Of a stretch of 64,000 bases of DNA, positions 13,261 to 59,881 are shown one piece after another. The DNA is taken from NCBI GenBank assembly GCA_016432485.1, contig CP066691.1, forward strand, positions 217,294-281,293, in the 5' to 3' direction. The stretch is from Candidatus Niyogibacteria bacterium. GTDB lineage: Bacteria > Patescibacteriota > Minisyncoccia > HO2-45-28. Both the position numbers and the translations under genes were made by a program. Within the stretch, counting starts at the first letter, position 1, and each line of letters opens with the position of its first letter. Below the pieces are notes generated by a model. The model did no database searches and was not told the DNA's origin. It saw only the letters and a program-made list of their open reading frames with translations.

Positions 13261-13297
13261 GTAACATCTTTTGATACAATTGTCAGAAATATGTTAC
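13261..13297. repeat. Copy A (slightly degenerate, 37 nt) of the 36-bp palindromic element GTAACATATTTCTGACAATTGTCAGAAATATGTTAC, overlapping the 5' end of the Cas2-like gene
   Basis: gtaacatcttttgatacaattgtcagaaatatgttac; right half perfect, left half has 3 mismatches and 1 indel. Confidence 0.85.
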
Positions 13298-13300
13298 CAT

Positions 13301-13840
13301 ATGATTTATATGAAAAAATTGCCTATTACTGATAAGTTTTTGTGGAAATTATACGATCTGATAGAAAAGGCGGATGATGTGGTTGACTTTATCGGGCCGG
13401 GAACGATGTCCGAAACTGTTTACCCCGACACCAGACGTTTGCGGCACGAGTACAAGAAGGAAAACGCCAGACGAAAATTCAGCCAGTTTATGATGTACTT
13501 ACAAAATCGGGGTTATATAAAAACCAAAGCTCTGGAAGGAACAACGGGAGTGCTTTTAACGCCCAAAGGCAAGAAAAAGGTTTTACTGACAAAAAGAAAG
13601 TTTGGCGAGAAGAAAAAACGCAAAGACGGATCTTGGATTATGGTTATATTTGACATACCTGCAAAATTAGGGACGATAAGACACGTTTTGCGAGATCGTT
13701 TAAGGTGGCTTGGATATCAACAACTTCAAAAGAGTGTTTGGGTGTGCCCCTATGACACGCACAGAGAAACCGAGGAAATTATAAGAGAACTTCGCTTGAC
13801 CTCTTATGTCAAAATATTTTTTATAAAAGAGATAATTTAA
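13301..13840 (+). CDS. Small protein with an N-terminal wHTH-like region and a C-terminal Cas2-like (PaaX-C-like) domain. Orphan: no cas1 and no CRISPR array in the window
   Basis: C-terminal WIMVIFDIPAKLGTIRHVLRDRLRWLGYQQLQKSVWVCP fits the Cas2 strand-helix pattern (hydrophobic-YDI...R..L...G.R.Q.SV). The ORF track begins at a TTG at 13271 inside the repeat; the ATGs at 13301 and 13310 are more likely starts. Confidence 0.55.
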   Translation: MIYMKKLPITDKFLWKLYDLIEKADDVVDFIGPGTMSETVYPDTRRLRHEYKKENARRKFSQFMMYLQNRGYIKTKALEGTTGVLLTPKGKKKVLLTKRKFGEKKKRKDGSWIMVIFDIPAKLGTIRHVLRDRLRWLGYQQLQKSVWVCPYDTHRETEEIIRELRLTSYVKIFFIKEII

Positions 13841-13888: not shown

Positions 13889-13924
13889 GTAACATATTTC
13901 TGACAATTGTTAGAAATATGTTAC
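13889..13924. repeat. Copy B of the 36-bp palindromic element, 48 nt downstream of the Cas2-like gene
   Basis: gtaacatatttctgacaattgttagaaatatgttac, a near-perfect palindrome with one central mismatch. Confidence 0.9.
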
Positions 13925-13940
13925 TAGTATTTGGAATGGA

Positions 13941-15110
13941 TTATTTTATTATTCCGCCGCCGAGCATTTCTCCACATTTATAAAAAACAGCCGATTGGCC
14001 AGGGGTTGCGGCTTTTTGTGGCTCATTAAAAACAACCCTTACCTTCCCCCCGTCCGTGGACTTCCGAAGTCCACATTTTTGAAGGGGCTGGCGGTAACGG
14101 ATGCGCGATTCGCAATTTAACGGAAGCTCTGGTTTAATTCCTCCAATCCAATTTATATCAGTGATTTCAATTTCTTTTTCGTAAAGCGCGGGGTCTAAAT
14201 CTCCTTCAGCGACAATGAGGGTGTTAGTTGCGGCTTCTTTCGCGGCAACATAAAGCGGCTCGGAGGTGCCGCCGATTTTAATTCCGTGCCTTTGCCCCAA
14301 AGTGTAAAAATTAAGGCCGTCGTGCTCGCCTATTATTTTTCCGGAGGTAGTCGCAATCGGCCCCGGATTTTTTGGTAAAATTTCGCGTAAAAAATCGCTA
14401 AAATCAACCTTCCCCACAAAACAAAGACCTTGGGAATCCTTTTTATCGGCTGTCGGCAGTCCGAATTTCCTCGCCATTTCTCTGATTTCGCTTTTTAGAT
14501 AATCCCCTATCGGAAATAAGGCGTGTTTGAACTGATTTTGCGTAAGACGCCACAAGAAATAACTTTGGTCTTTCGCGCTATCGCGCGCAGCGTGCAAAGA
14601 AAAATTCGAAGCACTAATATCGAAACTCGAAACAAATTCCAAATTCGAATTTTCCAAATTCAAAACATTTCTTTTATTTAGGATTTGGGGGTTAGATATT
14701 ATTTCGGATTTCTGATTTCTGATTTCTGATTTTCGGACGTAGTGCCCCGTCGCCACAAAGTCCGCGCCAAGCGCCAGAGCTTTTTCCAAAAAAATACCGA
14801 ATTTTATTTCCGAGTTGCAAAATACATCCGGGTTTGGCGTTCTGCCAACAGCATACTCACGCACCATGTAATTAAAGACGCGCTCGCGATATTCTTTCTC
14901 AAAATCAAAAATATAAAATGGTATTTCCAGTTTTTCGGCAACCGCCCTCGCATCTTCAGCGTCTTTCTCAACACTGCACTGGTCCCACGCCGACCAGCAC
15001 TTCATATGGCATCCAACCACTTCAAACTTTCCGCTTTTTTTAAGCAAAGCGGCTGCGACCGAAGAATCAACTCCTCCCGACATCGCTACGAATACTTTTG
15101 GCCTTTTCAT
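13941..15110 (-). CDS. mnmA: tRNA-specific 2-thiouridylase MnmA, with an internal low-complexity insertion
   Basis: MKRPKVFVAMSGGVDSSVAA PP-loop; CHMKCW; the insertion coincides with a 7-bp tandem DNA repeat. Confidence 0.88.
   Translation of the reverse strand: MKRPKVFVAMSGGVDSSVAAALLKKSGKFEVVGCHMKCWSAWDQCSVEKDAEDARAVAEKLEIPFYIFDFEKEYRERVFNYMVREYAVGRTPNPDVFCNSEIKFGIFLEKALALGADFVATGHYVRKSEIRNQKSEIISNPQILNKRNVLNLENSNLEFVSSFDISASNFSLHAARDSAKDQSYFLWRLTQNQFKHALFPIGDYLKSEIREMARKFGLPTADKKDSQGLCFVGKVDFSDFLREILPKNPGPIATTSGKIIGEHDGLNFYTLGQRHGIKIGGTSEPLYVAAKEAATNTLIVAEGDLDPALYEKEIEITDINWIGGIKPELPLNCESRIRYRQPLQKCGLRKSTDGGKVRVVFNEPQKAATPGQSAVFYKCGEMLGGGIIK
14701..14736. repeat. Tandem heptamer (atttctg/atttcgg) x5 inside the mnmA coding sequence
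   Basis: atttcggatttctgatttctgatttctgattttcgg. Confidence 0.85.
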
Positions 15111-35111: not shown

Positions 35112-35210
35112 CCCGCCGCTCTGATAGAGTGGCGGGTTTTTTTACCCCCACACCAATTGAGCAATAGCGCCTCTGGCGCAAAATAAAAAATTGCTCAATT
35201 GGTGTGGAGG
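35112..35210. terminator. Composite element E1: a GC hairpin terminator (CCCGCC...GGCGGG plus T7), then an 18-bp perfect inverted repeat CCACACCAATTGAGCAAT (24-nt loop) ATTGCTCAATTGGTGTGG
   Basis: Second copy of the same architecture at 58735-58835. Confidence 0.75.
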
Positions 35211-35211
35211 T

Positions 35212-36599: not shown

Positions 36600-37052
36600 T
36601 TATATCCCACCCCTTTCAAGAGCAAGTTTTACGGCCTCAAGTCCAAACAAAACGCAATTTTGGCGAGATGGCGAGGGGGTCCCGCCGACCATTTTAAAAA
36701 TATCTTCGTTTTTGATTTTTTTGATAAGAGAAATGGGCCTGCCTTTGATGTGTTCCGAAAAAATTGACAGAGCCGCCCGCGATAAAATACACCCCTGAAT
36801 CTGATATTTAATGTCGGCGATTTTGCCGTTTTTAATTTTTAAAAAAATCTCCGCCTCATCCCCGCAAAAAGGATTTTTAGCCGAAATCTTTTTTGTGCCG
36901 TAAATCACCCCGACATTCCGCGGATTCCTCGCATGCTCCATTATCAACTCCTGATAAATCCCATTAGAAAACCCTTTATCGGGAGTCATCAGAAAATTTT
37001 TGTTTGAGTTATTCATATTGTCTGTCTTTATAAATATCCGCCGTGAAATCAT
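36600..37052 (-). CDS. sufU: SufU/IscU-like Fe-S cluster scaffold (NifU N-terminal type)
   Basis: MEHARNPRNVG...FCGDEAEIFLKIKNGKIADIKYQIQGCILSRAA; the true start is probably internal (MNNSNK or MTPDKG). Confidence 0.8.
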   Translation of the reverse strand: MISRRIFIKTDNMNNSNKNFLMTPDKGFSNGIYQELIMEHARNPRNVGVIYGTKKISAKNPFCGDEAEIFLKIKNGKIADIKYQIQGCILSRAALSIFSEHIKGRPISLIKKIKNEDIFKMVGGTPSPSRQNCVLFGLEAVKLALERGGI

Positions 37053-38475: not shown

Positions 38476-38589
38476 TATAGCTTACTCCGACACCCCACGA
38501 CACTCTTGTTATTTATTGACCAGATCGCACGAATTGTTATACTAAATTCAGTAATTGATACATCAAAACTTCGAACAGGGAGGCAGAAA

Positions 38590-38829
38590 ATGACGCTACA
38601 CCTTATCAACAACGGATGGATTCAACAATTTCTGATTTCACAGCCAGAAAGTGGTATGGGTTTTCAACAGATAGAACTTCATTTGAAGGACGGGAGAATA
38701 ATCCCGCAGCTTACAGCTGCTAACGCCGAATTCATTGAAATTCCGAGTCACTGTGGAAATATCACCGAGGACGACATTTTAAGAATCGCGATGCTTCATG
38801 GAGGGGTTGGACAAAAACCAACACCTTAA
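38590..38829 (+). CDS. Hypothetical protein (79 aa)
   Basis: RBS GGGAGG 7 nt upstream; promoter TTGACC-N16-TATACT at about 38530-38560; terminator GCCTGCC-ttt-GGCAGGTC plus T6 at 38844-38870; the longer 38278 ORF is rejected. Confidence 0.5.
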   Translation: MTLHLINNGWIQQFLISQPESGMGFQQIELHLKDGRIIPQLTAANAEFIEIPSHCGNITEDDILRIAMLHGGVGQKPTP

Positions 38830-38964
38830 ATGTTTTTCAATATGGCCTGCCTTTGGCAGGTCTTTTTTATCCTCACGCGCCGTGACATCTCTTGATGTGT
38901 GATACGGATGGAAACATACAATAATCTCAATTTAGTTCAAAAAGTTTTGGTAAGCAAACTGGTA

Positions 38965-39012
38965 TAAAAAGACGGGTTAGCAGGTTTCCCCACTAACCCG
39001 TCTGTGTTGTTT
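38965..39012 (-). terminator. Rho-independent terminator (10-bp perfect stem GACGGGTTAG / CTAACCCGTC) after the GC-rich ORF 39047-39439
   Basis: Hairpin followed by TTTTTAT on the minus strand. Confidence 0.7.
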
Positions 39013-39046
39013 GCCGCATTGCACGGCCCTACTTCTGGCTGGCGAG

Positions 39047-39439
39047 CTAGGCCAGAAGCTTCTGGAGTGCCGACACCTCTGGTGTCACGATGTTGATGGG
39101 CTTGCAGAGGAACGCAATCAGCTCCTCGAGCGGGTGCCGGGGACCGGGCAGCAGGGCGCTGAAAACGTTCTCCTTGACAAGGAGCGCGCCGTCCGCGTCC
39201 ATGATGCGGACCTCGCAGTAACTGCCCTCCTCCCAGTGCTTGGCCTCCACCCGCACGGAAACGACGCAGGCACCGTTGGCGCCGAAGAGGCGGTAGAGAT
39301 TGGGATCGCTCTCGTCTTTCTCCGGGCGCAGGGCGCAGAACTTCTCGGCCACCTTCTCCCACAACCGCATCACCATGGTTCGGTTCTGTTGATCGTAATA
39401 TCTCATGAAATCACCTCCTCCCTTTTTTGTCTCGGTCAT
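39047..39439 (-). CDS. Hypothetical protein (119-130 aa), strongly GC-rich (about 60% by eye). Foreign-looking mini-cassette inserted downstream of sufS
   Basis: Two in-frame starts: 39439 (RBS AAAGGAG, spacing 11) and 39406 (RBS GGGAGGAGGTGA, spacing 4). Confidence 0.55.
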   Translation of the reverse strand: MTETKKGGGDFMRYYDQQNRTMVMRLWEKVAEKFCALRPEKDESDPNLYRLFGANGACVVSVRVEAKHWEEGSYCEVRIMDADGALLVKENVFSALLPGPRHPLEELIAFLCKPINIVTPEVSALQKLLA

Positions 39440-39460
39440 TTATGTGCTACTCCTTTATAT

Positions 39461-39489
39461 ATGCTACACCCTTATTGTTATTTTGTCAA
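39461..39489 (-). promoter_or_regulatory. Consensus-like promoter on the minus strand, TTGACA-N17-TAGCAT(ATA)
   Basis: fwd tgtcaa 39484-39489 and atgcta 39461-39466. Confidence 0.6.
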
Positions 39490-39510
39490 GCCCACAACGT
39501 TTATATTTAT

Positions 39511-40791
39511 TTACCACACCGTGCGAACAAACTTTTTGTGAATTTCTTTAAGCGCGCGGATAAAATAATCTATTTCTTCTTTGGTATTGTAAATATAAAA
39601 ACTTGCTCGTAATGTCGCGAGAACGCCCAAATGCTTCATCAAGGGTTGGGCGCAATGGTGGCCGGCGCGAACCGCTATGCCATATCGGTCAAGCATGGTT
39701 GCCGCATCATGCGGATGAATCCCGTCCCGGTAACATATTTTCGACAATTGTTGAAAATATGTTACTCCGCAAATATTAAACGAAATAATTCCGGTGCGGT
39801 CCTTTGTTTTTTCAAATCCGAGCAAGTCCACAAACGGCAGTTTTTTCATTTTTTCCAGCGCGTATTTTAAAAGTTCGCGCTCGTGATGCTCAATATTTTT
39901 CATTCCGATTTTTTTCAAATAATCAATTGCTTCGCCGAACAAAATCGCGCCTTCTATATTCGGTGTGCCCGCTTCAAACTTCCACGGCAAATCATTCCAA
40001 GTTACGCTTTTAGCCGTAACCTCGCGTATCATCTCGCCTCCTGACATAAACGGCTCCATACTTTCCAAAATTTCAGATCTCCCCCAAAGCGCGCCGATGC
40101 CTGACGGCGCTAGCATTTTATGACCCGAGAAAGCGAAAAAATCGCAGCCGATTTTACGAACGTTCACCGGAATGTGTCCGGCAGATTGAGCGCCGTCAAT
40201 CAAAATCAAAGCCCCGACTTTATGCGCCTCTTTACATATTTTTTCAACCGGATAAATATAGCCGGAGACGTTTGAAATGTGGGCTACGGCGACTAATTTT
40301 GTTTTTTTAGTCAATTTTTTTCTGAAATCCGTGAAATCAAAATCGCGCGTTGATGTTAATTTGACGATATCCAGTTTTAATCCGCGCTCGCGAGCCAGAC
40401 GCAGCCACGGCACAAAATTGGAATGATGCTCCGAAATCGTCGTCAGTATTCTATCGCCTCTTTTAAATTTTCGCCCCAAAGAGTAAGCGACTAAATTGAC
40501 GGCTTCGGTGGCGTTACGGGTGAAAATTATTTCTTTAGAACTTTGCGCGCCGATAAAATCGGCGGCTTTTTGTCGGGAGAGCTCAAATTCTTTCGTGATT
40601 TCTTCGGCCATCTGATAGGCCCCGCGATGCACATTGGCGTAAGAATGCGCGTATAGTTTTTTCAGCCGCTCCGTAATAATTTTCGGCTTCTGGGTAGTGG
40701 CGGCGTTGTCAAAATAAACAATAGCGCGTCCGTTTATTTTTCGCGTAAGTACCGGAAAGTCCTTTTTTATTTTTTTGAAATTAAAAATCAT
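39511..40791 (-). CDS. sufS: Cysteine desulfurase SufS (class V aminotransferase, PLP-dependent), carrying a 12-residue in-frame insertion encoded by the palindromic element
   Basis: ...HKMLAPSGIGALWGR..., active-site region RAGHHCAQPLM; the insertion ...SFNICG[VTYFQQLSKICY]RDGIHPHD... sits where canonical SufS has about 4 residues. Confidence 0.88.
   Translation of the reverse strand: MIFNFKKIKKDFPVLTRKINGRAIVYFDNAATTQKPKIITERLKKLYAHSYANVHRGAYQMAEEITKEFELSRQKAADFIGAQSSKEIIFTRNATEAVNLVAYSLGRKFKRGDRILTTISEHHSNFVPWLRLARERGLKLDIVKLTSTRDFDFTDFRKKLTKKTKLVAVAHISNVSGYIYPVEKICKEAHKVGALILIDGAQSAGHIPVNVRKIGCDFFAFSGHKMLAPSGIGALWGRSEILESMEPFMSGGEMIREVTAKSVTWNDLPWKFEAGTPNIEGAILFGEAIDYLKKIGMKNIEHHERELLKYALEKMKKLPFVDLLGFEKTKDRTGIISFNICGVTYFQQLSKICYRDGIHPHDAATMLDRYGIAVRAGHHCAQPLMKHLGVLATLRASFYIYNTKEEIDYFIRALKEIHKKFVRTVW
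39730..39765. repeat. Copy C of the 36-bp palindromic element (GTAACATATTTTCGACAATTGTTGAAAATATGTTAC), codon-aligned and in frame inside sufS
   Basis: Hand translation of the minus strand gives exactly 12 codons, VTYFQQLSKICY, with no stop. Confidence 0.9.
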
Positions 40792-41388
40792 TTAAACTAA
40801 AAGTGTTTTTATAATTTTCTCCGTTTCCGCCAAACCCAAACCGGCCCGCGAAAGGGGCGCTGATAAAAATCCCGCGCTTTTCAGCCGCTCCGCCTTAATC
40901 CGGTCAACTCCTCTTGTCGCCATATAAAAAATATCTTCGTCGGATATTTTAGATACGGTTGCCGCGTGTCCCGCCCGTTCAACTTCGCTTGTCAGTATTT
41001 CCAGACGGGGGTCTACGCGACAGCTTGCCTCATCAAAAATAATCGCCCGTCCGTCAAACCATGCGCTGGAATTCTTCGCGGCGCTACCAACCTTCACGTT
41101 CCCGGCAATCTCTCCCGATGAATCGTCTCTGCCGATGCAGCGAACCATAGTGTTTGAAAAAGAATTTTCTCCCAGATGGTTCACGCGTATATTTATGCTT
41201 ATTTTATCCGTTTTACTCGCCGAAAACAAAAAAATATTGGTCAACTTTGCCCATTCGGCCAGATTGAATTCCAGATTCCCCGCGAAACTTTTTACCCCAC
41301 CTAAAAGCCAGACAAAGGTTTTTTTTTGGTTGGAGGAGATGCGAAAATTTTTGTCTATTTTTTTACTTTTAATAAATTCTATTTTCAA
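40792..41388 (-). CDS. sufD: Short SufD-like protein (SufBD family, 198 aa, C-terminal beta-helix region only)
   Basis: ...AGHAATVSKISDEDIFYMATRG..., similar to the SufB/SufD C-terminus; placed between sufB and sufS. Confidence 0.65.
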   Translation of the reverse strand: MKIEFIKSKKIDKNFRISSNQKKTFVWLLGGVKSFAGNLEFNLAEWAKLTNIFLFSASKTDKISINIRVNHLGENSFSNTMVRCIGRDDSSGEIAGNVKVGSAAKNSSAWFDGRAIIFDEASCRVDPRLEILTSEVERAGHAATVSKISDEDIFYMATRGVDRIKAERLKSAGFLSAPLSRAGLGLAETEKIIKTLLV

Positions 41389-41426
41389 AATTTTTAGAAA
41401 TTAGAAATTAGTAATTAGAAATTGCA

Positions 41427-42818
41427 TCATCCCACGCTTCCTTCCATTTCCAATCTTAATAAATGATTGAGCTCGGCAGCGTATTCCATCGGCAGTTCCC
41501 GCGTAAGATCGCTTAAAAATCCGGAAACCAAAAGGCCGAGCGCGTCCGATTCCTTTATTCCGCGCGAGCCAAGATAAAAAATTTTATCCTGTCCGACCTT
41601 TGAAACCGAGGCCTCATGCTCAATACTTGAAGTCGGTTCTTTAATATCCATTGTCGGGTAGGTATCGGAGCGCGAAAGTTCATCAAGCAATAAAGCGTCG
41701 CATACCACTTTACTTTTGGAATTTTTAGCGCCCTTAATTATTTTAACCATGCCCCGATAACTTGTCCTTCCGCCGCCGGAAGCCACGGATTTTGAAATAA
41801 TCCGGCTTGATGTCTCCGGCGCCAGATGCACGGCCTTACCTCCGGCGTCCTGATGCTGGCCGGCGCCCGCGTAAGCCAAAGACAATACCGAACCGCGCGC
41901 CTTTGGACCGCGCAAAAAAATACTCGGATATTTCATGGTTGCGCCCGAGCCGATATTTCCGTCAATCCATTCAACATTAGCTTCTTCTTCCGCGAAAGCG
42001 CGTTTGGTCACAAGATTATAGACATTTTTAGACCAATTTTGAACGGTGGTGTAGCGCACATTCGCTCCTTTTTTTGCGATGATTTCAACTACGGCCGCGT
42101 GCAAAGACGCGGTTGAATAATTAGGCGCGGTGCATCCTTCAATATAGTGCACGCTTGAGCCCTCTTCGGCAATAATCAAAGTCCGCTCAAATTGGCCCAT
42201 ATTTTTGGCGTTAATCCTGAAATAGGCCTGCAGGGGAATTTCAACTTTTACTCCGGCCGGAACATAAACGAAACTTCCGCCCGACCAGACGGCGGAATTA
42301 AGAGCCGATAGCTTGTTATCCGCGGGAGGAATAACCGTGCCAAAATATTTTTTGAAAATTTCAGGATATTTTTTATAGCCGGTGTCGGTGTCGCAAAAAA
42401 TAACCCCCCTGCTTTCCCAATCGCCTTTTATATTGTGATACACGACTTCCGAATCGTATTGCGCCGAGACCCCCGCCAAATATTTTCGTTCGGCTTCAGG
42501 TATCCCCAATCGCTCAAAAGTATTTTTTATGTAAGGCGGCACTTCGTCCCAACTTACGCTTTGGCGCTCGGCTGGACGGACAAAATAAATAACATCGTTA
42601 AAATCAATACCCGATAAATCCGCGCCCCACTCGGGCATTTTTTTGTCATTAAAAATTTGAAGCGAGCGCGAACGAAAATCGCGCATCCACTTATCTTCGC
42701 CTTTTATTGCCGAGAGTTCCCTCACGACATTTTCAGAAAGTCCCGCCCGAAAAGCGCTCACCGGCTTTTCCTTATCAAAAAATCCGTATTTGTATTTGAA
42801 TGTTTTTATATTGGGCAT
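41427..42818 (-). CDS. sufB: Fe-S cluster assembly protein SufB
   Basis: 463 aa, ...SVHYIEGCTAP..., SufBD beta-helix. Confidence 0.9.
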   Translation of the reverse strand: MPNIKTFKYKYGFFDKEKPVSAFRAGLSENVVRELSAIKGEDKWMRDFRSRSLQIFNDKKMPEWGADLSGIDFNDVIYFVRPAERQSVSWDEVPPYIKNTFERLGIPEAERKYLAGVSAQYDSEVVYHNIKGDWESRGVIFCDTDTGYKKYPEIFKKYFGTVIPPADNKLSALNSAVWSGGSFVYVPAGVKVEIPLQAYFRINAKNMGQFERTLIIAEEGSSVHYIEGCTAPNYSTASLHAAVVEIIAKKGANVRYTTVQNWSKNVYNLVTKRAFAEEEANVEWIDGNIGSGATMKYPSIFLRGPKARGSVLSLAYAGAGQHQDAGGKAVHLAPETSSRIISKSVASGGGRTSYRGMVKIIKGAKNSKSKVVCDALLLDELSRSDTYPTMDIKEPTSSIEHEASVSKVGQDKIFYLGSRGIKESDALGLLVSGFLSDLTRELPMEYAAELNHLLRLEMEGSVG

Positions 42819-43564
42819 TTTAAGTATGAATAGCCCGACTCGCCTATACGCTCGGCCAAATCCGCACTACCGCTTTTAACGATTTCGCCATCAATCATAA
42901 TATGGACTTTATCCGGCTTGATATATCGCAAAATTCTTTGGTAGTGCGTAATTAAAATCACCGCCATGCCTTTGTCTTTAAAAACCGATATTTCCTCGCC
43001 GATTTTTTTTAAGGCGTCAACGTCAAGACCCGTGTCAATTTCGTCAAAAACGGCAAGGCGCGGCCCGAGCATCTGCATTTGCGCGAGTTCCAGTTTTTTT
43101 CTCTCGCCGCCTGACGCCCCGTCGTTAACGGCGCGCATTATGAAATCGTCCGCAAGCCCTATTTTTGAAAACCTTTTTCCGATTTCGTCTCTTAATCCGA
43201 AAATGTCGGTATTATTTTTCGTTTTTCGTTTTATGCTTCGCGCTTCGCCCGCCGCCTGCATTAAAGAAAAAAAACTCACTCCTTCAAGGGCGGGGGGCGT
43301 TTGAAATCCTAGAAAAATTCCGAGGCAAGCGCGCTTTTCGGGCTTTAAACCGTTTATTTTTTTCCCGTTGAAATTTATCTCCCCTTTTTTAATTTTATAA
43401 TCGGGGTGTCCGGCAATGCTCATAGCCAAAGTGCTTTTGCCCGAACCGTTAGGGCCCATTATCACATGGGTTTCGCCGGAATTCAGCGTGAAATTTATGT
43501 TTTTTAAAATCGGCTTACTTTCAATGCCGACACGCAAATTTTTTATTTCCAAAAGCCGGGGCAT
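42806..43564 (-). CDS. sufC: Fe-S cluster assembly ATPase SufC
   Basis: Walker A GPNGSGKST; ABC signature; overlaps sufB. Confidence 0.92.
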   Translation of the reverse strand: MPRLLEIKNLRVGIESKPILKNINFTLNSGETHVIMGPNGSGKSTLAMSIAGHPDYKIKKGEINFNGKKINGLKPEKRACLGIFLGFQTPPALEGVSFFSLMQAAGEARSIKRKTKNNTDIFGLRDEIGKRFSKIGLADDFIMRAVNDGASGGERKKLELAQMQMLGPRLAVFDEIDTGLDVDALKKIGEEISVFKDKGMAVILITHYQRILRYIKPDKVHIMIDGEIVKSGSADLAERIGESGYSYLKCPI

Positions 43565-58734: not shown

Positions 58735-58835
58735 CCGCCGCGGGTCAGCAAGACCGCGGCATTTTTTTACCCCCACACCAATCTGGCAATGACGCTTTTA
58801 AGCGCGTGAGAAAAATTGCCCGATTGGTGTGGGGG
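58735..58835. terminator. Composite element E2: a GC hairpin terminator (GCCGCGG...CCGCGGC plus T7), then a 21-bp imperfect inverted repeat CCCCCACACCAATCTGGCAAT (24-nt loop) ATTGCCCGATTGGTGTGGGGG. Same family as E1
   Basis: Shared TTTTTTTACCCCCACACCAAT...ATTGGTGTGGRGGTTTAT framework. Confidence 0.75.
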
Positions 58836-58847
58836 TTTATTTTCTCA

Positions 58848-58881
58848 AAACATTCCAACATTCTGCAGAATGTTGGAATGT
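58848..58881. terminator. Perfect 34-bp palindrome AACATTCCAACATTCTG|CAGAATGTTGGAATGTT (central CTGCAG), flanked by T-runs on both strands. Bidirectional terminator between E2 and tkt
   Basis: 17-bp arms with no loop. Confidence 0.6.
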
Positions 58882-58882
58882 T

Positions 58883-59881
58883 TTATTTCCTTTTTATTAC
58901 TCTGCGAGCCGCCTCAATTATGTGTTTGGGGCCCATTCCAAAATATTCTATAAGTTCATTTGGCTCGCCGGATTCGCCGAAACGATTGCGAACTCCCACA
59001 AATTCAATGGGAACAGGATAATTACGGGCGACTATTTCGGCTACGGCCGAGCCCATTCCCCCATTTATTTGATGCTCCTCAACAGTTACTAAACATCCGG
59101 CGTCTTTAGCCGCTTTCAAAATAGTACTCTCATCCATTGGTTTTATCGTGTGATTATTTATTACGCGGACTTTAATCCCTTTCTTTTCCAATTCTGCCGC
59201 GGCCAAAAGCGCGTTATGCGTAAGCGGCCCGCAAGCAATAATCGCCACTTGCAAAGGCATCGCCTTTGCATCCCAGAGAATTTCGGCGCGGCCTACTTTA
59301 AACGGAGTTTTATCGGTCGTAAAAACAGGCGTTTTTTCTCTAGCAAAACGCAAATAAACCGGCCCTTCCAAGCCAGCGGCCTCTATAGTCGCCTTTTTTG
59401 CCTCCACTGCGTCACAGGGCACAATAACGGTCATATTGGGAATTACGCGGGTTATGGCAATATCTTCAATCGCCTGATGAGTCGCGCCGTCAGGACCCAC
59501 CGAGACCCCGGCATGCGCTCCGGCAATAATGATATGACGTTCATTATAAGCAACGGTCGTCCGTATCTGCTCCCAATTCCTGCCGGGACTGAACATAGCG
59601 TAGGAAGAAATGTAAGGAATTTTTCCGGCGGCAGCCATACCCGAAGCGACTGAAGCCATATTTTGCTCGGCCACGCCCATTTCAACAAACCTTTCGGGAA
59701 ATTCTTTGGCAAACGCCTCCGAGCGCGTGGATTCGGTTAAATCCGCGCAAAGCACCACAACATTTTTATTTTTCTTGCCCGCTTCCACCAAACCCTCGCC
59801 ATATCCGTTTCTCGTCGGCGCCTGCGCGACTTTTTTTAAATCCAAAACCTCTTTTACTAATTTTGATTTAATATTTATCAT
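58883..59881 (-). CDS. tkt: Transketolase, C-terminal subunit (pyrimidine-binding and C-terminal domains) of a split enzyme
   Basis: 332 aa; overlaps the N-terminal subunit gene by 4 nt. Confidence 0.88.
   Translation of the reverse strand: MINIKSKLVKEVLDLKKVAQAPTRNGYGEGLVEAGKKNKNVVVLCADLTESTRSEAFAKEFPERFVEMGVAEQNMASVASGMAAAGKIPYISSYAMFSPGRNWEQIRTTVAYNERHIIIAGAHAGVSVGPDGATHQAIEDIAITRVIPNMTVIVPCDAVEAKKATIEAAGLEGPVYLRFAREKTPVFTTDKTPFKVGRAEILWDAKAMPLQVAIIACGPLTHNALLAAAELEKKGIKVRVINNHTIKPMDESTILKAAKDAGCLVTVEEHQINGGMGSAVAEIVARNYPVPIEFVGVRNRFGESGEPNELIEYFGMGPKHIIEAARRVIKRK

Follow-up and report, generated by a model that had tools for sequence, protein, structure and literature searches.

Palindromic repeats that lie in frame within unrelated housekeeping genes, and that are translated while the function of the protein is apparently retained, are known from Rickettsia (PMC10969869). 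These Rickettsia palindromic elements (RPEs) are about 150 bp long, make up about ten families with dozens of copies per genome, account for 44 insertions in R. conorii and each carry a conserved peptide (PMC10969869). Repetitive extragenic palindromic (REP) sequences and the REP-associated tyrosine transposases (RAYTs) form a second system of short palindromes; the end tag of a REP is a GTAG or CGTC tetranucleotide (PMC3733652). Paired inverted repeats also serve as operators: in E. coli, PaaX recognises TGATTC-N27-GAATCA and shuts down the promoter of its own gene, Px, repressors of this type acting by steric hindrance of RNA polymerase, and the Cas2-like domains of PaaX proteins have been described as dimerisation modules (PMC9493321). 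The present analysis concerns a 36-nt palindrome inside sufS, an essential cysteine desulfurase gene in a 64-kb stretch of contig CP066691.1 from a Candidatus Niyogibacteria bacterium (the whole stretch of 64,000 nt is referred to as the window). The palindrome entered sufS as part of a lineage-specific, in-frame insertion, and it belongs to a family of dyads that brackets a PaaX/Cas2-like gene in several genomes of the candidate phyla radiation (CPR), a group of ultra-small bacteria.

The open reading frame (ORF) around the palindrome, 39511..40791(-), encodes 426 aa and contains neither a stop codon nor a frameshift. Its sequence is identical to QQG46469.1, annotated as 'SufS family cysteine desulfurase [Candidatus Niyogibacteria bacterium]', on an 836,981-bp contig. 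The features of this gene are as follows; R1 denotes a covariance model built from 19 dyad sites of the family.

39511..40791, minus strand: sufS, type II (SufU-type) cysteine desulfurase, 426 aa, intact (alignment, HMMER, AlphaFold2)
39727..39771, minus strand: the full insertion, CGVTYFQQLSKICYR (homologue alignments, comparison of empty and filled sites)
39730..39765, no strand: the palindrome, sufS copy, with the sense (minus) reading VTYFQQLSKICY (R1, 48.9 bits)
39706..39717, minus strand: HPHD motif, His359-Asp362 (alignment; His361 is the counterpart of B. subtilis His342)

The minus strand of 39730-39765 reads GTAACATATTTTCAACAATTGTCGAAAATATGTTAC, a near-perfect palindrome of 36 nt with no spacer, in which 17/18 positions are self-complementary; no match was obtained in any of 100 dinucleotide-preserving shuffles of the window. 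It is read as the codons GTA ACA TAT TTT CAA CAA TTG TCG AAA ATA TGT TAC, residues 343-354. The sequence-only reading had proposed such a codon-aligned stretch of 12 codons without interruption of the frame, and this was confirmed. It had also equated the 12 residues with the insert, which proved too small: MAFFT, HMMER and codon alignments all gave an insert of 45 nt or 15 aa, residues 341-355, made up of the palindrome with 6 nt added 5′ and 3 nt added 3′ of it. Since the insert is of this size, the 36-bp length to which its tolerance had been attributed does not explain that tolerance on its own.

In a MAFFT alignment of 21 SufS sequences, all 20 homologues show the 15-residue gap, including relatives of 406-407 aa that are 77-78% identical by BLASTP (78-81% in the alignment). 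HMMER alignments to 1t3i (Synechocystis) and 5xt5 (B. subtilis) place the same gap between FNI/FNL and (D)D-V-HPHD. The census of the loop was extended to 123 aligned SufS, comprising the 120 best hits and three other members of the query's 90% cluster. The canonical 16-residue span is present in 117 of these, and the insert was found only in the four members of the query's own cluster, being absent from the other 119. The insertion is therefore lineage-specific, as had been suspected, and not an ancestral loop. SufS sequences P0061 (+5 aa, IKSGE) and P0095 (+11 aa, PSTHSVRSGPL) have unrelated inserts in the same loop before HPHD; since these lineages carry inserts of their own, the loop is a recurrent hot spot for insertion. 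At the nucleotide level, the empty sites of two relatives read TTT AAT ATA AAA AAC GTC CAT (P0002) and TTT AAT ATT AAG GGT TTA CAT (P0003), and the filled site reads TTT AAT ATT TGC GGA [36 nt] CGG GAC GGG ATT CAT. Comparison of filled and empty sufS sites gave no convincing target-site duplication, only a resemblance between CGGA and CGG(A/G).

The enzyme around the insert looks complete. SufS is a PLP enzyme of fold type I whose catalytic Cys belongs to an HHC(A)QP loop; here PLP Lys225 (H224-K225) and the catalytic Cys380 fall in invariant columns of the SufS alignment and HPHD is conserved, and HMMER comparison with B. subtilis SufS gave E 1e-119. An AlphaFold2 (AF2) model had a mean predicted local distance difference test score (pLDDT) of 83 and template modelling (TM) scores of 0.90-0.93 to B. 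subtilis SufS. In this model the insert lies between a strand at 335-340, ending in ...SFNI, and a helix at 360-369, with residues 344-354 at pLDDT <50. The insert is thus probably a disordered surface loop of 15 residues, in agreement with the surface location guessed at from the sequence: the model and the unrelated inserts of other lineages both point to a permissive connection between strand and helix. His361, six residues past the end of the insert, was aligned by HMMER with His342 of B. subtilis SufS, which replaces a SufU ligand at the Zn site in the complex that SufS forms with SufU, and is needed for the interaction (PMC8918507). Overall the protein resembles B. subtilis SufS (PDB 5xt5; 44-46% identity, TM 0.9). 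The two share the catalytic Cys, the Lys that binds PLP and the SufU-specific His, and SufU itself is encoded nearby; what sets the protein apart is the loop of 15 residues that links the FNI strand to the HPHD helix, which none of the solved or close homologues has. A SufS with such a loop beside the SufU-docking His offers a natural experiment on how much this interface tolerates. The gene is the last of a sufC-sufB-sufD-sufS operon, with SufU and an ArsR-type regulator encoded in its vicinity.

40792..43564, minus strand: sufC-sufB-sufD, same operon, upstream of sufS (ORFs, Pfam)
36618..36959, minus strand: SufU, NifU_N type, sulfur acceptor (tblastn, 72% identity to the NifU_N gene of the relative L014)

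The general expectation that metagenome-assembled genomes contain errors is the sole argument for an artefact or for chance, whether the hairpin were misassembled, the SufS loop ancestral or the palindrome a coincidence. The identical 426-aa SufS was found on eight independently assembled contigs from at least four Sequence Read Archive runs (SRR12113422/24/26/28). In a sister strain, CAZNNT01, whose record bears the label 'Saccharibacteria', the orthologous sufS contains the same palindrome in an intact reading frame, and here the flanks have changed. The two genes are 97.8% identical in nucleotide sequence and differ at 19 synonymous and 8 non-synonymous codons, a pattern expected of a gene under purifying selection. 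Independent assemblies, a diverged sister strain, the rarity of the insert among homologues, the result of the shuffles and the existence of related copies elsewhere with compensated differences together effectively exclude an artefactual or chance origin.

Recurrence of the element had also been part of the sequence-only reading, and two further copies were found in the window at 13261-13297, in degenerate form, and at 13889-13924. What that reading missed is that the palindrome is a member of a conserved dyad family bracketing a PaaX/Cas2-like gene across CPR genomes of the Paceibacteria type: in the window, these two copies bracket the ORF 13310..13840(+).

13261..13297, no strand: degenerate 37-nt copy ending 12 nt before the PaaX/Cas2-like start codon (R1, 37.1 bits)
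13310..13840, plus strand: PaaX/Cas2-like gene, about 176 aa, candidate binder of the palindrome (PF20803, 4e-21; TIGR02277/TIGR01573; PDB fold match 8a39)
13889..13924, no strand: 36-nt copy, 48 nt 3′ of the PaaX/Cas2-like gene, between convergent genes
13941..15110, minus strand: mnmA-like gene, convergent neighbour of the 13889 copy

The product of 13310..13840 matches Pfam PaaX_M (PF20803, 'PaaX protein central Cas2-like domain', 4e-21), positions 47-149 of the 279 in the NCBIfam PaaX profile (TIGR02277), and the cas2 profile (TIGR01573) at 26.1 bits against a cut-off of 24.5. Among solved structures, E. coli PaaX (8a39, E 5e-5) ranks first as a fold match and Cas2 proteins come next. Homologues numbered 433 at E <= 0.001; the best 120 of these are mostly 174-183 aa long, and nearly all of those for which a source is named are from Patescibacteria. 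Conservation within the family is strong, with an invariant Asp in an FDIP motif at what we take to be the position of the metal-binding catalytic Asp of Cas2. In an AF2 model the Cas2-like half, a domain of ferredoxin type, was predicted at pLDDT 85-91 and the N-terminal half, with a helix and a β-hairpin 'wing', at a low-confidence 35-65. Proteins of this kind are widespread in Patescibacteria and often mis-annotated as 'Cas2'; a full-text literature search returned no description of the family in Patescibacteria or of its palindromes.

The association of dyad and gene was followed in seven CPR genomes: the window, to which the sister locus L005 is orthologous, L021, L033, L034/L039, L035/L038, L036 and L040. 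In all seven, a dyad of 36-37 nt lies upstream of the regulator gene and stops 1-13 nt short of its start codon. A downstream dyad is present in six, beginning between 9 nt ahead of the end of the stop codon and 48 nt past it; the candidate in L036 was seen by eye only and was not recovered by motif or model scans. In L021 and L040 the regulator gene terminates in the TAA of the palindrome. The genes neighbouring the regulator vary between the seven genomes. In L034/L039, L035/L038 and L040 the regulator gene stands directly upstream of transketolase, and a copy of the dyad lies directly upstream of tkt in the pentose-phosphate cluster of L039, L040 and L038 (in L038 after an inserted ORF). 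L038 and L039 place the regulator within a G6PD-6PGD-tkt-6PGL-transaldolase cluster with the dyad just before tkt. This gene order hints that the regulator may control pentose-phosphate genes in these lineages.

Alignment of the sites gave a tripartite consensus, (R)TAACAY-N9-[CGATCG / CAATTG / CGGCCG]-N9-RTGTTA(Y), in which inverted TAACAY hexamers 22-24 bp apart are joined by an additional conserved central hexamer. Across the 19 sites, 88% of positions are complementary in the dyad, and 47 double-change cells were counted against 17.6 +/- 3.4 in shuffles, a value reached by none of 500. The symmetry has thus been preserved, since changes in one arm are compensated in the other; between the sufS copy and that at 13889-13924, for example, a TC...GA pair is exchanged for CT...AG. 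In the 64-kb window, R1 recovered three sites and no more, of which the one in sufS is intragenic. Draft contigs of the sister strain in the genome collection contain three copies with exact arms, in sufS, 3′ of the regulator gene and between convergent efp and mutM (L011), where both genes end in the TAA of the palindrome. The number of copies per genome is estimated at 3-4, and copies within one genome agree at variable positions.

The arms by themselves (GTAACATATTT-N13-16-AAATATGTTAC) were tried as a signature of the family and rejected, as they also matched elements without the central 6-bp palindrome; the tripartite form is diagnostic and the arms alone are not. Among the hits of the arm scans were a 35-nt sequence of marine phage and several AT-rich hairpins whose centres are not palindromic. 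A repeat of about 90 nt ending in GTAACATATTTCCGCACAACTGCTGAAATATGTTAC was found at no fewer than ten loci (L001, L003, L004, L006-L010, L012, L013) of a 'Coriobacteriaceae' bin, CAVKHB01; it has the same 11-nt arms as the window palindrome but no 6-bp palindrome at its centre, and is probably a MITE/REP-like element of no relation to the dyad (MITE, miniature inverted-repeat transposable element). Since billions of bases were scanned, an 11-nt arm pair may recur by chance, and the arm-sharing hits that lack the centre are probably all unrelated to the dyad family. Exact-arm metagenome hits L020, L021 and L022 have a CGATCG centre, and the L021 site adjoins a PaaX/Cas2-like gene. A phage origin was considered and found no support: the tripartite CGATCG-centred motif had no match in viral contigs.

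The sufS copy is not the only one inside a gene. At locus L020 the dyad lies within gltX, in a different frame from that used in sufS (NTFSSIDKNVL); the 11 residues TFSSIDKNVLH are missing from all 15 aligned glutamyl-tRNA synthetase homologues and fall in a variable linker, making this a second in-frame case. A possible third, with a weak model score (R1, 25.9 bits, E 0.02), is the palindrome GGTGTATTTTCTACGGCCGTAGAAAATACACC at 2754-2789 of L036, in a DegT-type aminotransferase gene with the in-frame reading YGVFSTAVENTP; its centre is CGGCCG, as in the regulator-linked site of L036.

The likeness to RPEs drawn in the sequence-only reading holds for the mode of insertion, with the reading frame kept in sufS and, at L020, in gltX. 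It fails for size and abundance: the dyad is 36 bp in a 45-nt insert, with three copies in 64 kb and 3-4 per genome, compared with about 100-150 bp and tens of copies for RPEs. The dyad is moreover read in different frames in sufS and gltX, so that the conserved peptide of an RPE is lacking; it is tied to a regulator-like gene, occurs in another phylum and has no sequence relationship to RPEs. The best-documented cases of palindromes inserted in frame in housekeeping genes are those of Rickettsia, and the same outcome is seen here in the unrelated, equally reduced CPR, through an element that is much smaller, present in few copies and linked to a conserved PaaX/Cas2-like gene. A literature search on palindromic insertions in CPR returned nothing relevant. 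In-frame insertion is in itself a known phenomenon, met here in a new lineage; the conserved pairing of protein and palindrome appears undescribed.

Since the dyad family brackets the PaaX/Cas2-like gene, its members look like sites for recognition by a protein rather than anonymous selfish repeats. The comparison with the PaaX operator is suggestive: each contains a pair of widely spaced inverted hexamers, and a site stands at the start of the regulator's own gene in every one of the seven genomes. By analogy with PaaX, we consider it reasonably probable that the PaaX/Cas2-like protein recognises the dyad, and that the dyad was copied into sufS and is tolerated there. A copy of the site together with 9 nt, 45 nt in total, would have been inserted in the common ancestor of the two Niyogibacteria strains, landing in the connection between the ...SFNI strand and the helix that starts at HPHD. 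On either strand, just one of the three frames of the palindrome holds a stop codon (G|TAA|C). Because the insert is a multiple of three, because only this one frame is closed and because the loop tolerates insertions, sufS stayed open; the sufS copy would then be in the main a passenger that is tolerated, and not a regulatory site at work. The protein of about 176 aa and the 36-bp candidate site now defined for it make a testable protein-DNA pair.

Several points weigh against this proposal. What links the protein to the site is position and analogy only, and the sample in which the linkage was seen comprises seven genomes. The hexamers are 22-24 bp apart, compared with 27 bp in the E. coli operator, and enclose the central 6-bp palindrome as a third block. 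The CPR protein lacks the C-terminal phenylacetyl-CoA-binding (effector) domain of PaaX, and the N-terminal half of its model, where a winged helix is expected to lie, is of low confidence. To our knowledge, operators are not normally born as 45-nt insertions in genes or between convergent genes. Because they seldom appear in this manner, some copying process is needed, and neither a target-site duplication in sufS nor a transposase in the window was found. The proposal does not account for the 9 additional nucleotides of the insert. The harmlessness of the insert is an assumption, since it adjoins the SufU-binding His. The system also departs from PaaX in its hexamer sequence (TAACAY), in having dyads also 3′ of the gene, within coding sequences and in the gaps separating convergent genes, and in the place of the gene, which several CPR genomes have in a pentose-phosphate cluster rather than a paa operon.

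The need for copying gives some weight to a different view, in which the dyad is a selfish REP- or MITE-like element mobilised in trans, the flanked winged-helix/Cas2-like protein takes the part of a RAYT with its Asp as nuclease, and the copies in sufS and gltX are neutral scars. The arrangement is that of REP-RAYT (and REPIN-RAYT) systems: a short, imperfect, hairpin-capable palindrome in the 20-40-bp range, a conserved single-copy gene between two such palindromes, dispersed copies that are often between convergent genes, and sequence variants specific to each genome. Also in favour, the dispersed dyads lie between convergent genes and inside genes and not at promoters, and those of one genome agree at their variable positions. 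Conservation of the FDIP Asp and of the Cas2 match would suit a nuclease. At 10534-12146 of L038, an extra 501-aa ORF (weak PsbP_2 and TIG matches) is flanked by two dyads and is absent from the syntenic L039, and the dyad could mark points of gene insertion. Against these stand the low copy number, three in 64 kb and three exact-arm copies in the sister-strain contigs, which is at least an order of magnitude below that of REPs; the ends, (G/A)TAAC ... GTTA(C/T), which have no GTAG or CGTC tag; and the copies inside genes, whereas REPs are mostly extragenic. The flanked gene is of the PaaX type and not an HUH Y1 transposase, and neither an HUH nor a DDE transposase linked to the dyad was found: none lies next to any copy examined or anywhere in the 64-kb window. 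As in the comparison with MITEs, a clear target-site duplication is missing. The function of Cas2-like domains in PaaX as dimerisation modules (PMC9493321), and the operator-like position of the downstream copy before tkt in several genomes, also speak for a regulator. Taken together, a selfish element is possible but rather unlikely.

A genuine RAYT-like unit was available for comparison in the same genomes. L038 (14787-15506) and L039 (14004-14726) encode a RAYT-like Y1 transposase with the HUH motif HYHLIL in the pentose-phosphate cluster, and in L038 GTAG-tagged hairpins, GTAGTAAGGCTTAGCCTTACTA, stand on either side of this gene, forming a classical REP-RAYT unit in a CPR genome. The unit shares its locus in L038 with the PaaX-like gene and its dyads and is a system separate from them. 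Such a RAYT was also considered as the mobiliser in the window and rejected, a homologue of the L038 protein not being found there. A REP/RAYT-like system proper to CPR, in which the winged-helix/Cas2-like protein copies or seeds its own 36-bp palindromes, even in frame into sufS and gltX, is a tentative idea that we hold to be doubtful; if true, it would be a partnership of protein and palindrome of a new class, and would supply loop insertions to the proteins of reduced genomes.

If the dyad is a protein-recognition site, the sufS copy might itself have been selected as an intragenic operator, at which the PaaX-like protein would act as a roadblock or by looping to tune the suf operon or genes downstream. 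The palindrome is identical in the two strains while its flanks have changed, and steric hindrance of RNA polymerase is the established mode of PaaX-type repressors. At 97.8% identity, only about 0.8 changes would be expected in 36 nt, so that the identity is uninformative about function. The site is 216 nt from the end of the operon's last gene, which leaves little for it to regulate. Immediately 3′ of sufS, moreover, the strains differ: a stretch of about 970 nt (38532-39503) has no counterpart in the sister strain (L002). The GC content of its core, 39001-39400, is 0.57-0.67, compared with about 0.45 for the whole window, and the stretch includes an ORF, 39047..39439(-), of 130 aa without a Pfam match; it has the look of foreign DNA whose insertion is strain-specific. 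In a Niyogibacteria relative without the sufS insert (L014, 7191-7232), a perfect palindrome of 42 nt centred on CGATCG, AAAGTACCCATTCTCTTGCGATCGCAAAAGAATGGGTACTTT, stands immediately upstream of sufC, where the window has a 44-nt gap and no palindrome. This may be a suf operator in that relative and would lend the idea some support, but its arms differ from those of the dyad family and it scored 21.5 bits with R1 (E 0.16). Selection of the sufS copy as an operator thus appears improbable.

The stability of the predicted RNA hairpins (-14 to -19 kcal/mol, z -7 to -8.6) raises the question of a role in RNA, as a terminator, a stabiliser or a site for an RNase or RNA-binding protein, with the sufS copy being read through by ribosomes. 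Copies at the 3′ ends of genes and 9-13 nt before start codons, and pairing kept by compensatory changes, would be compatible with this. The upstream copies, however, are poor hairpins (-10.4 kcal/mol, z -3) that retain the outer and central hexamers, which fits better with sequence-specific recognition of duplex DNA, and the hairpin on the sense strand of sufS contains an A-C mismatch. No U-tracts were seen after the stems, and an Rfam scan of the window returned four tRNAs only, none matching the palindrome. A promoter or terminator role likewise found no support for the copies near 13.2-13.9 kb, where matches were no commoner than in shuffles. An RNA-level element is an explanation that we find very hard to credit, and recognition of the dyad by the PaaX/Cas2-like protein is preferred.

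Other palindromic sequences were noted in the window. At 58847-58884, between convergent ORFs, lies a 38-nt perfect palindrome, AAAACATTCCAACATTCTGCAGAATGTTGGAATGTTTT, with a CTGCAG centre; its layout is loosely like that of the dyad family, and it was not picked up by R1. It stands right 3′ of a hairpin of about 68 nt at 58769-58836, which together with another at 35144-35211 makes up a second repeat family of two copies (ACCCCCACACCAAT...N24...ATTGGTGTGGGGGT). The copy at 35144 is preceded by a GC-rich, terminator-like stem with a T run.

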